Sequence record: OQ349392.1
From: Escherichia phage KIT06
DNA: 64,000 nt
Reading direction: 5' to 3' (one strand)
This document shows, in pieces, positions 40,171 to 49,061 of this stretch. Within the stretch, counting starts at the first letter, position 1, and every line of letters starts with the position of its first letter. Under the pieces are notes generated by a model, which saw only the letters and a list, made by a program, of their open reading frames with translations, did not search any database and was not told the DNA's origin. A program made the position numbers and the translations under genes.

Positions 40171-40503
40171 ATGAAAACGATTAATCTGAACGCTACAGTT
40201 AAAACTAAATGCTTCAATGGTAAATATGATGAAACTATGTGGTTCTTAATGGCAGTTGAAGGTGATATTATTGAAGTAGAAACAACAGAAGGTATGGGAA
40301 CAGATTTCACCTTTACAATTCAAGTTCATAATTTCTTTACTGGTTGGATTTATGAATTGAATACAGTAATCGTTGGAAAAATTGAACAAAATGAATTGGG
40401 TGAATGGTATTATGTTACAGCTCGCCAGCGTGCCGAACGCTTAATTGAGAAGATGAAAAAAGTTGGTAAACTTGACATGCAGCACTGGAAAGTAGTAAAA
40501 TAA
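40171..40503 (+). CDS. Hypothetical protein (110 aa)
   Basis: ORF with SD AAGGAGAA. Confidence 0.5.
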   Translation: MKTINLNATVKTKCFNGKYDETMWFLMAVEGDIIEVETTEGMGTDFTFTIQVHNFFTGWIYELNTVIVGKIEQNELGEWYYVTARQRAERLIEKMKKVGKLDMQHWKVVK

Positions 40504-41265: not shown

Positions 41266-41462
41266 TGAAATTCTTTTTAGGTCAAACTGTTGAATTAAAG
41301 GGAGTTGGTATACCTGGATTAATTTCTAAGGTTCTATCTCCATTTAAATGGAGTGGTATTCAAATAAAAGAGGCTTATATTGTTTCCTGGGTAGATGGAA
41401 ATGAAGACCTTCGTATGGGCGATGAATTATCTCCTATCTATGGATTAAAGGAATTAGTATGA
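41265..41462 (+). CDS. Hypothetical protein (65 aa)
   Basis: ORF with TAATG overlap. Confidence 0.45.
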   Translation: MKFFLGQTVELKGVGIPGLISKVLSPFKWSGIQIKEAYIVSWVDGNEDLRMGDELSPIYGLKELV

Positions 41463-41665
41463 ATATAATTAATAAGATTTTTGGAATTCAGTACATTAAG
41501 GTCACATATAAAGTAACGTATAAAGGTCCGTATACCGATGAACATGAAGAGCCGCAAGTTAAGTCTATTATATTAGAAAAGGACCCTAACTGGCCAATTG
41601 AATTTCGTCTTCCTTGCTATGGTCATTGGGCTGATGTTGAAATTATAAGTATTGAAAATGTCTGA
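41459..41665 (+). CDS. Hypothetical protein (68 aa)
   Basis: ORF with ATGA overlap. Confidence 0.45.
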   Translation: MNIINKIFGIQYIKVTYKVTYKGPYTDEHEEPQVKSIILEKDPNWPIEFRLPCYGHWADVEIISIENV

Positions 41666-42116
41666 GTTAGAGATTAGAAGCAATTTTAGATGGCCATCAT
41701 GTGCATTAAGTAATTTCGCCCAATGGCCTTTTGTTATGGATGGTATCCAATTTGGAGGTCTCGAAGGATTCCTCCAAGGATGCAAGGTGAAAAATGTTGA
41801 ACAACAGCGTCGTATATTTGGGTTATCCGGGCTTGCCGCCCAACAAGCTGGAAGGTCTTATGCAAGAGCTCAGGACCATGGCACGTTGTTCTGGCTTGGA
41901 ACTCCGTTTTCAAGATATTCCGAAGCATGGAAAGAATTATACACAAATGCATATTTTGAAGCCGCGATCCAAAACAAGGGGTTTCGTGATGCCTTACAAG
42001 CCTCTAAAGGAAAAATTTTGAAGCACAGCATGGCTAGCGGTCTAACAAAAGATGATACAATACTAACCGAAGCTGAATTTATTGATGTGTTAAACCTATT
42101 AAGAGACTCTCTATGA
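41652..42116 (+). CDS. NADAR (YbiA-like) domain protein (154 aa)
   Basis: Motif LSNFAQWPFVMDGIQFGGLEGFLQGCK resembles the NADAR signature FSNFxxWP..DG......EhyfQaxK of E. coli YbiA. Confidence 0.6.
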   Translation: MKMSELEIRSNFRWPSCALSNFAQWPFVMDGIQFGGLEGFLQGCKVKNVEQQRRIFGLSGLAAQQAGRSYARAQDHGTLFWLGTPFSRYSEAWKELYTNAYFEAAIQNKGFRDALQASKGKILKHSMASGLTKDDTILTEAEFIDVLNLLRDSL

Positions 42117-42943
42117 AGCCAACTATTTTGACTGATATTGATGGAGTATGTTTAAGCTGGCAATCAGGCCTTCCTTATTTTGCTCAGAAATATAATCTTC
42201 CGTTAGAACATATTTTAAAAATGATCCAAGATGAGAAATTTATTTCTCCAGGTAAACTCTTTAATTGTGACGAAGAACTTGGCGTCAAGTTAATTGAAAA
42301 ATACAATCGTTCAGATTTTATTCGTTACTTGTCTCCGTATAAAGATGCCCTGTGTGTAATTAACAAATTAAAAGAAGATTATAATTTTGTAGCTGTTACA
42401 GCATTGGGTGATTCTATTGACGCTCTGTTGAATCGTCAATTTAATTTGAATGCTCTTTTTCCTGGTGCTTTCTCGGAAGTAATGATGTGTGGTCATGATT
42501 CTTCAAAAGAAGAGCTGTTCAAAAAGGCAAAAGAGAAATATAACGTAATTTGTTATATTGACGATCTCGCTCATCACTGCGATCATGCGAGTGAAATATT
42601 AAATGTTCCTGTTTATTGGATGGCTCGAGGGGAGCGTGATAATATTCCAAAAACTGCTCAGCGAGTTTATACATGGAATGATGTAGAAAATAAGCTTTTT
42701 TCGCCGAAGGAAAATAAAGAAAGTTTTGATAGTGAAAAAGCTATAAAAGATTTAATTGAGAAGATGGTTAAAAACGATTCTTTTCCTTGGAACACTACCT
42801 GGAGAACGCCTGGATTAAATCCTTATAATCATCCATATCAGACACATCCGTTTCAGACATGGAACTATATTAAACCTGGTGGCATAGAGTATTTGTATAA
42901 TAGACCTACTAGTGGTGATAATATTTTTCAAGGAGCATTCTAA
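42113..42943 (+). CDS. HAD-superfamily hydrolase-like protein (276 aa)
   Basis: N-terminal ILTDIDGV motif (HAD motif I, DxDG). Confidence 0.55.
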   Translation: MKPTILTDIDGVCLSWQSGLPYFAQKYNLPLEHILKMIQDEKFISPGKLFNCDEELGVKLIEKYNRSDFIRYLSPYKDALCVINKLKEDYNFVAVTALGDSIDALLNRQFNLNALFPGAFSEVMMCGHDSSKEELFKKAKEKYNVICYIDDLAHHCDHASEILNVPVYWMARGERDNIPKTAQRVYTWNDVENKLFSPKENKESFDSEKAIKDLIEKMVKNDSFPWNTTWRTPGLNPYNHPYQTHPFQTWNYIKPGGIEYLYNRPTSGDNIFQGAF

Positions 42944-44903: not shown

Positions 44904-47000
44904 ATGATGGAACTCATTACAGAATTATTTGACGAAGATACTACTCTTCCGATTACAAACTTAAATCCAAAGAAGAAAATACCGCAAATTTTTTCAGTTC
45001 ATGTTGATGACGCAATTGAACAACCAGGCTTTCGTTTATGTACCTATACATCTGGAGGTGATACTAACCGTGATCTAAAGATGGGCGATAAAATGATGCA
45101 CATTGTTCCTTTTACATTAACTGCTAAAGGTTCAATTGCTAAATTGAAAGGTCTCGGTCCAAGCCCAATTAATTACATCAATTCAGTTTTTACTGTTGCG
45201 ATGCAAACGATGCGTCAGTATAAAATTGATGCCTGCATGCTTCGTATTCTTAAGTCTAAAACTGCCGGTCAAGCTCGACAAATTCAAGTTATTGCTGATA
45301 GACTTATCCGTAGTCGTTCGGGTGGCAGATACGTCCTTCTTAAGGAACTCTGGGATTACGATAAAAAGTACGCATATATTCTTATACATCGCAAAAATGT
45401 ATCACTAGAAGACATTCCAGGAGTTCCGGAAATTAGTACCGAGCTCTTTACTAAAGTTGAATCGAAAGTCGGCGATGTTTATATCAATAAAGATACTGGA
45501 GCTCAAGTAACTAAAAATGAGGCAATTGCTGCATCTATTGCGCAAGAAAATGATAAGCGTTCTGACCAAGCTGTAATCGTTAAAGTTAAAATTTCCCGTA
45601 GAGCAATTGCGCAAAGTCAGTCATTGGAATCTTCTAGATTTGAAAGCGAATTATTCCAGAAATATGAATCTACCGCAGCTAATTTCAATAAACCCGCTAC
45701 AGCTCCTTTAATTCCCGAAGCAGAAGAAATGAAGCTTGGAATTAATTCATTAGCTTCTAAAACTAAGGCAGCAAAAATTATTGCTGAAGGAACTGCAGAT
45801 GAACTTCACTATGACTATAAATTCTTTTCAAAAAGTGAGGTTAATGAAGTTTCTGAAAAAATTAAAGACGTAATTCTTAATGCGATTAAAAATGAACCAA
45901 CTACTTCAATAAAATGTTTAGAGAAGTATGCAGCAGCTATTAATAAATTCTTTGAAGAATATAAAGATACTTGGCTTGATAAACATAATAAAACCCGTAA
46001 AGGACAGCCAGATGAAGTCTGGGAAGAAATAACTAAAAATTCCTGGAACGCAGCAAAAACTAAATTCCTCAAACGAATGATTTATAGCTTTTCTGGAATT
46101 GGTGCAGGTCCAATGATTGATATTACTATTGCCCGTGATGGTTCTAAATATACTCCATCACAAAAGCGCGGCATTAGAGAATATTGTGGTTCAGGATATA
46201 CTGACATCAATAATCTTCTTTTAGGACGCTACAATCCAGAACGATATGATGTAATGAGTGAAAAAGAAATTGAATCTGCGATAAATAATTTAGATTCAGC
46301 CTTTGAAAATGGTGACCGTATACCAGAAGGCATTACAGTTTATCGTGCTCAAAGTATGACTGCTCCTATATACGAAGCGCTAGTTAAAAATAAAGTGTTC
46401 TATTTCAGAAATTTTGTATCTACTTCTTTAACTCCTATCATTTTTGGACGTTTTGGAATTACACATGCTGGTATCGGTCTTTTAGAACCAGAAGCTCGTA
46501 ATGAATTAACAGTTGATAAAAATGAAGAAGGAATAACTATTAATCCGAACGAAATAAGAGCGTATAAAGAAAATCCTGAATACGTTAAAGTTCAAATAGG
46601 ATGGGCAATTGATGGAGCTCATAAAGTTAATGTTGTATATCCAGGGAGTCTCGGAATAGCAACAGAAGCTGAAGTAATTCTACCACGCGGATTGATGGTC
46701 AAAGTTAATAAAATAACTGATGCTTCTAATAATGACGGAACAACATCTAATAACACAAAACTCATTCAAGCTGAAGTTATGACTACGGAAGAACTCACCG
46801 AATCAGTAATTTATGACGGTGACCGTCTAATGGAAACTGGTGAAGTAGTTGCAATGACAGATGATATTGAAATAGAAGACAGAGTTGACTTTGCATCATT
46901 TGTTTCATCAAATGTTAAACAGAAAGCAGAATCATCTCTCGGAATTATTGCGTCTTGCATAGATATTACAAACATGCCTTACAAGTTCGTTCAAGGATAA
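44904..47000 (+). CDS. alt: ADP-ribosyltransferase Alt (about 697 aa), capsid-packaged
   Basis: N-terminus MELITELFDEDTTLPITNL as T4 Alt; C-terminal half has R / S-T-S / E-x-E ART signatures (YR, FVSTSL, EAEV); start probably ATG 44907. Confidence 0.85.
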   Translation: MMELITELFDEDTTLPITNLNPKKKIPQIFSVHVDDAIEQPGFRLCTYTSGGDTNRDLKMGDKMMHIVPFTLTAKGSIAKLKGLGPSPINYINSVFTVAMQTMRQYKIDACMLRILKSKTAGQARQIQVIADRLIRSRSGGRYVLLKELWDYDKKYAYILIHRKNVSLEDIPGVPEISTELFTKVESKVGDVYINKDTGAQVTKNEAIAASIAQENDKRSDQAVIVKVKISRRAIAQSQSLESSRFESELFQKYESTAANFNKPATAPLIPEAEEMKLGINSLASKTKAAKIIAEGTADELHYDYKFFSKSEVNEVSEKIKDVILNAIKNEPTTSIKCLEKYAAAINKFFEEYKDTWLDKHNKTRKGQPDEVWEEITKNSWNAAKTKFLKRMIYSFSGIGAGPMIDITIARDGSKYTPSQKRGIREYCGSGYTDINNLLLGRYNPERYDVMSEKEIESAINNLDSAFENGDRIPEGITVYRAQSMTAPIYEALVKNKVFYFRNFVSTSLTPIIFGRFGITHAGIGLLEPEARNELTVDKNEEGITINPNEIRAYKENPEYVKVQIGWAIDGAHKVNVVYPGSLGIATEAEVILPRGLMVKVNKITDASNNDGTTSNNTKLIQAEVMTTEELTESVIYDGDRLMETGEVVAMTDDIEIEDRVDFASFVSSNVKQKAESSLGIIASCIDITNMPYKFVQG

Positions 47001-47003
47001 ATC

Positions 47004-49061
47004 ATGGAACTTATTACAGAATTATTTGACGGCGCTTCGGCGCCGGTTGTTAACTTAAATCCTAAGCATAAAATACCTCAAATTTTTGCTATTCAAGCCG
47101 GCGAAGAAAGTGTGCTTCCTGGATTTAGATTTTGTACATACACCTCTGGCGGTGATACAAATAAAAACGTTAAGCCAGGCGATAAAATGATGCATATCGT
47201 AATGATAGGTGTTAATGAGAAACTATCATTAGTTAAACTTAAAAACTTGGGTGGAAATCCAATTGGTGTCATTAATGCAGTTTTTGATACTGCTCTTCAA
47301 ACAATGAAACAGTATAAAATTGACGCATGCTTATTCCGCGTACTAAAGAGTAAAACAAATGGCGCTGCTCGTCAAATGCAAGTTATTGCCGACCGTTTAG
47401 TACGTACTAAAGGAGCAGGTCGATATGTTCTTTTAAAGGAAATCTGGGACTATGATAAGAAATATGCATATATTATGGTTTACCGTAAAAATGCCAATTT
47501 AGAAGACATTCCAGGTGTACCTCCTATTTCAACTGAGTTATTCACAAAAGTTGAATCAAAGGTTGGTGATGTTTATGTAGATGTTAAAACAGGTAATGCT
47601 GTTCCTAAAGCTGTTGCTGTTGCTGCTTCTATTGCTTTAGAAAATGATAAGCGTACGGATCAAGCTGTTATTCAGAAAACTAAAATTAGCCGTCGATTAG
47701 CAGCTCAGGCTCAATATTCTACTGTCGATGCTTCACTTCAGGGTGATAGCTTCGCTGCTAAGAAATATCAAGAGTTTGAATCTAAAGTTCCGGTATATAA
47801 AGCAGAAGGACCAATGAACTCTGGCGTTATTCAGGTTGGTTCAAACTTCAGTAAAGGAGCTATCGGTGGTATGAGAAGTGCTTCTCGTTTTAAATCTAGT
47901 GATTATGAACTAGAAAGCTTCAGAAATCATATTGCATTGGCTCATGCACGTTTACGTGATCCATCTATCAAGTTACAGAGCGATATAACATATCAAGGTT
48001 CTCAGGAATATTTAAAGAATAAAGAATTTTTTGATTATAAAACTGATAAAATTTTAAGCGATCTCGCTGACATTAATATTTCTAATAGCTTTGATGTTAT
48101 TAAGAAAATTATCAATGATTTAGTTAAAGGTTCTAAAGCCACGCCAGATGAAAAGGTAGCTATTGTTCAATTTGTCATGAATGGCATTTATAAATTGATT
48201 AATGAGTCTGCTTCTCAAGCGTATGAATATGCAAGTACTGAAGTACCCCCAAAAGGATTAACTCGGGCTGAGTCTGATGTAATTGAAGATTATTGCGCAG
48301 ATTCATATGTTGAAATGAACTCGTTCCTTTTAGGTAAACCAGATTCTACTCGTGAAGAATACATGGAACGAGCTATTAAACACATCGAGACAATGGATTC
48401 TGCCTTTGCCAAAGGATCAGTTCTTCCTCCAGGAACTACGCTTTATCGTGGACAAGAAGTTACTTTTAAAACTTTACGCCATAATATTGAAAATAAAATG
48501 TTCTATTTCAAGAACTTCGTATCAACATCGCTTAAACCAAATATCTTCGGTGAGTATGGTAAAAACTATATGGCCCTAGATGATTCTGGTGCAGTATTTT
48601 CTGGTGAAGGAGAAGGTTCAGTTGATGCTGAAGATTTAATGCATATGGGCAGTCACTCTGCTTACGCGAATGAAGATGCTGAAACTAGCGTGGGTATGGT
48701 AATTAAAGGGGCTGAGCGAATCAAAGTTATCGTTCCAGGTCATTTATCAGGATTTCCATCAGAAGCTGAAGTTATTCTACCGCGCGGAATTTTACTGAAG
48801 ATTAATAAAGTAAGTACGTACTTTATGAAAGAAACTGCTTATAACAAGTATCTAATAGAAGGTACAATCGTTCCTCCTTCTGAACAATTAGAGGAATCGG
48901 TATATGATGGCGAGCATCTAATGGAAACTGGCGAAGTTCGTCCAATGGCTGGATTTAATCAATTCCTTGTAGAAGAATCAAAAGAAGAGGAAAACGAAGT
49001 TTCTCAAATCTTGGCTTCTTTGGTTAACATCAACGGAATGTCTAAAAAGTTCAAAATGTAG
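47004..49061 (+). CDS. Second Alt-like ADP-ribosyltransferase paralog (685 aa)
   Basis: N-terminal ~230 aa closely parallel the upstream alt; divergent C-terminal half keeps YR...FVSTSL...EAEVILPRG motifs. Confidence 0.7.
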   Translation: MELITELFDGASAPVVNLNPKHKIPQIFAIQAGEESVLPGFRFCTYTSGGDTNKNVKPGDKMMHIVMIGVNEKLSLVKLKNLGGNPIGVINAVFDTALQTMKQYKIDACLFRVLKSKTNGAARQMQVIADRLVRTKGAGRYVLLKEIWDYDKKYAYIMVYRKNANLEDIPGVPPISTELFTKVESKVGDVYVDVKTGNAVPKAVAVAASIALENDKRTDQAVIQKTKISRRLAAQAQYSTVDASLQGDSFAAKKYQEFESKVPVYKAEGPMNSGVIQVGSNFSKGAIGGMRSASRFKSSDYELESFRNHIALAHARLRDPSIKLQSDITYQGSQEYLKNKEFFDYKTDKILSDLADINISNSFDVIKKIINDLVKGSKATPDEKVAIVQFVMNGIYKLINESASQAYEYASTEVPPKGLTRAESDVIEDYCADSYVEMNSFLLGKPDSTREEYMERAIKHIETMDSAFAKGSVLPPGTTLYRGQEVTFKTLRHNIENKMFYFKNFVSTSLKPNIFGEYGKNYMALDDSGAVFSGEGEGSVDAEDLMHMGSHSAYANEDAETSVGMVIKGAERIKVIVPGHLSGFPSEAEVILPRGILLKINKVSTYFMKETAYNKYLIEGTIVPPSEQLEESVYDGEHLMETGEVRPMAGFNQFLVEESKEEENEVSQILASLVNINGMSKKFKM

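Follow-up and report, generated by a model that had tools for sequence, protein, structure and literature searches.

The closest described relative of the gene studied here is gene 30.3 of phage T4, whose product has been renamed AdfN (anti-DarT factor NADAR; Johannesman et al., bioRxiv 2024, PMC11257639; Nat Commun 2025, PMC11825919). Phage crosses mapped the DarTG1 resistance of T-even phages to this gene; T4 or T2 lacking it plaque about four logs less well on DarTG1, and RB69 is rescued by adfN provided in trans (PMC11257639; PMC11825919). AdfN is both necessary and sufficient against DarTG1 and does not counter DarTG2, and the purified protein strips ADP-ribose from DarT1-modified DNA while showing no binding to DarT1 (PMC11257639; PMC11825919). 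Each of the substitutions E36A and K43A abolishes the function of the T4 protein (PMC11257639). In vitro, T4 gp30.3 hydrolyses guanine-ADPr (PMC11125620) and leaves cytidine-ADPr intact (PMC12945103). DarTG1 resistance in infection has been shown for adfN of T4 and of T2 (PMC11257639; 10.1101/2025.11.20.689424), and according to a transposon screen the gene is not needed on K-12 and is essential in the presence of DarTG1 (10.1101/2025.11.20.689424). T4 AdfN is also active in T4-GT7, whose DNA is unmodified (PMC11825919). In uninfected E. coli it does not neutralise DarT1, and it hardly rescues phages outside the T-even group (PMC11825919; PMC11125620), so that a picture in which the enzyme alone suffices is incomplete in vivo.

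Several other phage factors serve the same purpose as AdfN, escape from DarTG, namely AdfA (gp61.2), AdfM (the tk.4 macrodomain), NADAR(Bas32) and NADAR(Bas60). AdfA binds the toxin instead of repairing DNA, and AdfM is a macrodomain directed against thymine-ADPr (DarTG2), whereas the two NADARs share the chemistry of AdfN, belong to other NADAR clades and are also active outside their own phage (PMC11257639; 10.1101/2025.11.20.689424). Phage NADARs are recognised by a histidine in the last strand, a position held by Glu in the YbiA type and by Asp in the DarG1 type (PMC11543638; PMC11125620). DarG1, the NADAR antitoxin of DarTG1 (e.g. from Geobacter/Trichlorobacter lovleyi, PDB 8bat), sits by darT1, and T4 AdfN cannot substitute for it in uninfected cells (PMC11825919).

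We analysed a stretch of 64,000 nucleotides from Escherichia phage KIT06 (OQ349392.1), referred to as the window. A 1-kb query around the open reading frame (ORF) of interest matched 666 phage records, nearly all of them T4-like phages of Escherichia, Shigella or Yersinia, with vB_EcoM_IME339 (Tequatrovirus, MH051915.1) as the best match at 98.3%. These matches identify the window as the genome of a Tequatrovirus (T4-like phage). A preliminary description had placed the gene in the 30.x cluster near ADP-ribosyltransferase (ART) genes, which agrees with our findings: the order 30.7, 30.6, 30.5, 30.4, 30.3, 30.2, 30.1, DNA ligase (30), alt.1, alt is that of T4 and IME339, and two intact Alt-like genes that carry PF03496 (E 1.6e-37 and 1.3e-19; 41% mutual identity) follow, the first about 2.8 kb downstream of adfN. 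T4 itself has one alt together with alt.-1 and alt.-2, which according to its record are remnants left when the first part of alt was duplicated, and RB69 has alt in single copy, compared with the two tandem genes of the window.

The ORF at 41652-42116 on the plus strand begins mechanically with a TTG at 41652. Two codons further 3', the ATG at 41658 is the likelier start of adfN, since it coincides with the start annotated for gene 30.3 of T4, yields a protein of 152 aa and overlaps the stop codon of gene 30.4. The translation matched Pfam PF08010 (Phage_30_3, "Bacteriophage protein GP30.3") with an E-value of 9.5e-69 and 230 bits over profile positions 1-138 of 138, where the curated cut-off is 36 bits; the ORF is thus far beyond chance, and we regard it as a real gene. 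PHROG 652 was matched as well (E 4e-51). The coordinates of all features are collected in Table 1.

Table 1 Features of the adfN locus, in coordinates of the window
Feature	Position	Strand	Remarks
adfN (gene 30.3), coding sequence	41658..42116	+	152 aa plus stop; predicted phage-type NADAR DNA ADP-ribosylglycohydrolase
ATGTCTGA, overlap of adfN start and gene 30.4 stop	41658..41665	+	read from the sequence; gene 30.4 = 41459-41665
N-terminal NADAR signature, L17-K43 (ALSNF ... EGFLQGCK)	41706..41786	+	aligned to YbiA SNFAAWP...SEHYFQAQKF (HMMER, hhalign)
E36, predicted catalytic Glu, codon GAA	41763..41765	+	invariant; opposite the E of YbiA SEHYF
K43, predicted catalytic Lys, codon AAG	41784..41786	+	at least 90% conserved; opposite the K of YbiA AQKF
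H123, phage-NADAR histidine of the last strand, codon CAC	42024..42026	+	invariant in 63/63; predicted strand 120-122/123
C-terminal alpha-helix, residues 138-151, intact	42069..42110	+	AlphaFold2 model
ATGA, overlap of adfN stop and gene 30.2 start	42113..42116	+	read from the sequence; gene 30.2 = 42113-42943
Tandem Alt-like ADP-ribosyltransferase genes	44904-47000 and 47004-49061	+	698 and 685 aa; context only, outside the adfN system

The window protein and T4 gp30.3 have the same length and align without gaps, with 147 of 152 residues identical (97%). The five differences (R74H, V82T, P89E, V120I and I125M) are conservative or lie at variable positions, and none falls into an invariant or at least 90% conserved column of our family alignment of 63 sequences. 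A homologue search retrieved 102 sequences. Both proteins share E36, K43 and H123 as well as an intact C-terminal helix, and both genes are flanked by 30.4 and 30.2 and precede ligase gene 30. Judging from sequence and position, the window gene and T4 gene 30.3 (adfN) are orthologues.

The overlaps at either end of adfN bear on its expression. The ATGTCTGA overlap suggests translational coupling of 30.4 and adfN, and the ATGA overlap would likewise couple adfN to 30.2. Expression of adfN would probably be early, within the 30.x transcription unit. A scan for sigma-70 promoters and terminators between 39000 and 45000 gave 22 hits against 19.5 expected from shuffles, which is not above the shuffled expectation. 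The strongest sigma-70-like match of the region, TTGACA-18-TAAAAT at 40472-40501 (+; 11/12), is found at the end of 30.8, ahead of 30.7, and represents a candidate early promoter of the unit containing adfN.

We then asked how firmly the protein can be assigned to the NADARs, as the preliminary description had proposed. Searched as a single sequence, it matched neither Pfam NADAR (PF08719) at E≤1 nor any entry in NCBIfam, among PDB sequences or in PADLOC. The link to NADARs thus depends on family members, profiles and fold. Pfam NADAR was matched by 23 of the 63 aligned family members (best E 1.5e-7), several homologues are named "YbiA (DUF1768 family)" by JGI, and one homologue has both PF08010 and PF08719. 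Compared with E. coli YbiA (PDB 2b3w), the family profile gave an E-value of 0.0032 in HMMER over the SNF...E...K motif and a probability of 94.1% (E 1.2e-7, 91 columns) in hhalign. An AlphaFold2 model computed from the family alignment was confident (pLDDT 93.5, pTM 0.89), and three NADAR structures were its top three Foldseek matches in the PDB, the rest being noise. The model thus predicts the NADAR fold, an alpha-helical core with small flanking sheets. The Pfam search suggested in the preliminary description gave no NADAR match for the protein itself and matches for some of its relatives, and the suggested structure prediction bore the assignment out. The absence of a NADAR profile match combined with missing catalytic residues would have spoken against it; the single-sequence search by itself gave half of this picture, which the profile matches and the presence of E36 and K43 contradict. 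Judged from family profiles and the predicted fold, the assignment as a NADAR is unambiguous.

The peptide LSNFAQWPFVMDGIQFGGLEGFLQGCK, to which the preliminary description had pointed as resembling the NADAR/YbiA signature, comprises residues 17-43 when numbered from the ATG at 41658. A manual count against FSNFAAWPIKVDGKTWPTSEHYFQAQK of E. coli YbiA showed 11 of 27 ungapped positions to be shared, and HMMER and hhalign aligned the same residues. Within and next to it, A16, L17, S18, N19, F20, E36, G37, F38 and Q40 are invariant in all 63 family members. In the last strand, the window protein has the His of the phage NADARs and lacks the catalytic Glu of the YbiA type (YbiA E125): the hhalign alignment stops at K122/YbiA V124, which places H123 opposite E125. 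E36, K43 and H123 would be expected to cluster in space.

The NADARs of known structure are less similar to the window protein than T4 gp30.3 is. DarG1 has 219 aa compared with 152 aa (132 aligned), with an N-terminal extension that the window protein lacks, and carries Asp in the last strand where H123 is found here. Whereas DarG1 is encoded next to a darT1 gene, the window adfN is an orphan, and Pfam scans of the neighbours 30.4, 30.2, 30.1, ligase and alt revealed no DarT domain. E. coli YbiA and the NADAR of Phytophthora nicotianae (PDB 8bau) are 19-20% identical to the window protein, and neither is a phage counter-defence protein.

A comparison with RB69 allowed us to judge the integrity of the allele. 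RB69 30.3 encodes only 137 aa, of which 131 (96%) match the window protein up to the last residue, T137. At the DNA level, RB69 reads ...CTAACTTGAAGC... in place of ...CTAAC-CGAAGC... in the window and in T4, and the extra T creates a TGA after T137, by which the C-terminal helix is lost. The DarTG1 sensitivity of RB69 is due to this insertion, which is located at nucleotide 411, deprives AdfN of its last 15 residues and leaves a non-functional allele (PMC11257639; PMC11825919). The window frame is free of the insertion and open through residue 152 and retains the helix; it thus appears to be an intact allele of the active type. It seems highly improbable that the window gene is instead an inactive or decaying allele like that of RB69. 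Truncated or mis-started versions are admittedly common in databases (entries of 126 and 109 aa, and the internal Met start in IME339), but here the full 152-aa frame is open and all invariant residues are kept.

The gene also stands out by its conservation between the window and RB69. AdfN is 96% identical at the amino-acid level, compared with 51% for 30.4, 68% for 30.2, 58% for 30.1, 63% for ligase and 42% for alt. We considered recent horizontal transfer as the cause and rejected it: the DNA of RB69 adfN (L006:8268-8681) is only 81-97% identical to the window per 100 nt, with many synonymous differences. DNA that has diverged at synonymous sites while the protein was kept suggests strong purifying selection on adfN, although the RB69 allele is frameshifted.

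Within adfN, a 75-aa ORF is located in the +1 frame (41794-42021, +), which is annotated as 30.3' in T4. This frame is open in the window, T4 and IME339; in RB69 only 34 aa of it remain. Diverged homologues likewise have an unusually long open stretch in frame 2, of 125, 97 and 97 codons in L011, L013 and L008, respectively.

Taking these data together, the window gene is very probably the orthologue of T4 adfN and encodes a minimal NADAR-fold glycohydrolase that repairs DarT1-modified phage DNA. Our own analysis contributes the identity with T4 AdfN, the conserved residues, the predicted NADAR fold and the intact frame, while the anti-DarTG1 phenotype, the specificity for guanine and the enzymatic activity were established in published experiments with T4 AdfN; the 97%-identical window allele would be expected to behave alike. 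According to this model, host DarT1 would ADP-ribosylate guanine bases (N2) in phage DNA and thereby block replication, and AdfN would cleave the ADP-ribose from the base and restore a replicable template. Its target would be the modified DNA lesion and not the toxin. The active site would be composed of E36, K43 and the phage-specific H123, the C-terminal helix would be required, and the enzyme would represent a minimal NADAR core devoid of the N-terminal extension of DarG1. The preliminary description had suggested a counter-defence against DarT-type toxins; our own tests and the published DarTG1 experiments on the T4 orthologue both argue for this guess, which was correct and not new, the function being already known and published.

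As an alternative, the preliminary description had suggested that the protein tunes the ADP-ribosylation exerted by the phage itself. We consider it very unlikely that AdfN reverses or tunes the activity of Alt, ModA and ModB. The two Alt-like ART genes downstream and the 30.3...alt synteny, which is retained in diverged T4-like contigs, would be in line with such a role. Alt and Mod enzymes, however, have arginine residues of proteins as their targets or RNAylate proteins. Base-linked ADP-ribose on guanine is what NADARs have been shown to act on (PMC11543638; PMC12945103), and on K-12 the phage can do without adfN, which becomes important only in the presence of DarTG1 (10.1101/2025.11.20.689424; PMC11257639). 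Moreover, contigs with homologues of ~38% identity contain no ART gene within 5-6 kb, and neither darT nor ART genes were seen near family members in metagenomic contigs. As distant family members thus lack a nearby ART gene, the linkage of 30.3 and alt reflects T4-type synteny only, and the idea of tuning found no support. There is next to no probability either that the protein is a housekeeping N-glycosidase acting, like YbiA, on small-molecule intermediates of the riboflavin pathway and not on DNA. YbiA is among the best matches of the AdfN family by fold and profile, yet the YbiA-type Glu of the last strand is replaced by the invariant His123, and the T4 protein is a demonstrated hydrolase of G-ADPr in DNA with an anti-DarTG1 phenotype (PMC11125620; PMC11257639).

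The T4 protein reaches full activity in T-even infections only. Since DNA modification is not the cause (PMC11825919), a T-even partner may be needed. That AdfN would not act alone in vivo but with such a partner (the putatively translationally coupled neighbours gp30.4 and HAD-like gp30.2 being candidates), or that it would have a second physiological substrate, e.g. G-ADP-ribosylated RNA, appears unlikely to us. RB69, in which ectopic AdfN is functional, has both gp30.4 and gp30.2. In T4-like contigs at 58-65% identity, 30.3 is followed by gene 30.2; the latter is absent beside homologues of ~38% identity, so we rejected a conserved functional pairing of 30.3 and 30.2, for which there is no support beyond synteny. 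The product of 30.2 (276 aa) starts with ...ILTDIDGV..., which resembles motif I of HAD phosphatases. It had no match in Pfam or NCBIfam, a PDB sequence search was uninformative, and PHROG gave weak matches only, to polynucleotide kinase/phosphatase. In some GenBank records, it is named 5'-3' deoxyribonucleotidase or phosphatase.

To assess the distribution of the family, we searched phage records by tblastn with a diverged family member and found gp30.3 relatives in 1509 of 50,697 records. Among 40 sampled of these 1509, genomes measured 149-253 kb, the hosts included Escherichia, Klebsiella, Aeromonas, Acinetobacter, Vibrio, Sinorhizobium and others, and the matched gene was almost always annotated as "hypothetical protein". 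In IME339 (MH051915.1; L002 8337-8717), gp30.3 is called from an internal Met as a 126-aa protein, and this start loses ALSNF and the catalytic motif. Similarly truncated calls, of 126 aa and 109 aa, occur in several database clusters. The biology is important, with an orphan enzyme that resembles an antitoxin and repairs phage DNA after ADP-ribosylation; the window locus adds just one further allele to it, because the T4 orthologue was published in 2023-2025. Its practical value lies in annotation, given a family that is mostly "hypothetical protein" and contains mis-started genes.

Homologues of the His type with ~38% identity were also detected in a 308-kb jumbo-phage-like contig (ERZ12302817 NODE_6, L003) near NUDIX and Thg1 genes, in the 82-kb phage-like contig L008 near a GGDEF gene, and beside a phage integrase in a 27-kb contig (GCA_016648615.1). 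Judging from these jumbo-like, 82-kb and integrase-bearing contigs, the gp30.3 family may reach beyond classical T4-like lytic phages. Finally, the PADLOC candidate-defence model PDC-M42C was weakly matched by 42 of the 63 family members (best E 3.4e-5), the window protein not being among them; from these matches, the PDC-M42C candidate system may hold a NADAR-like component.
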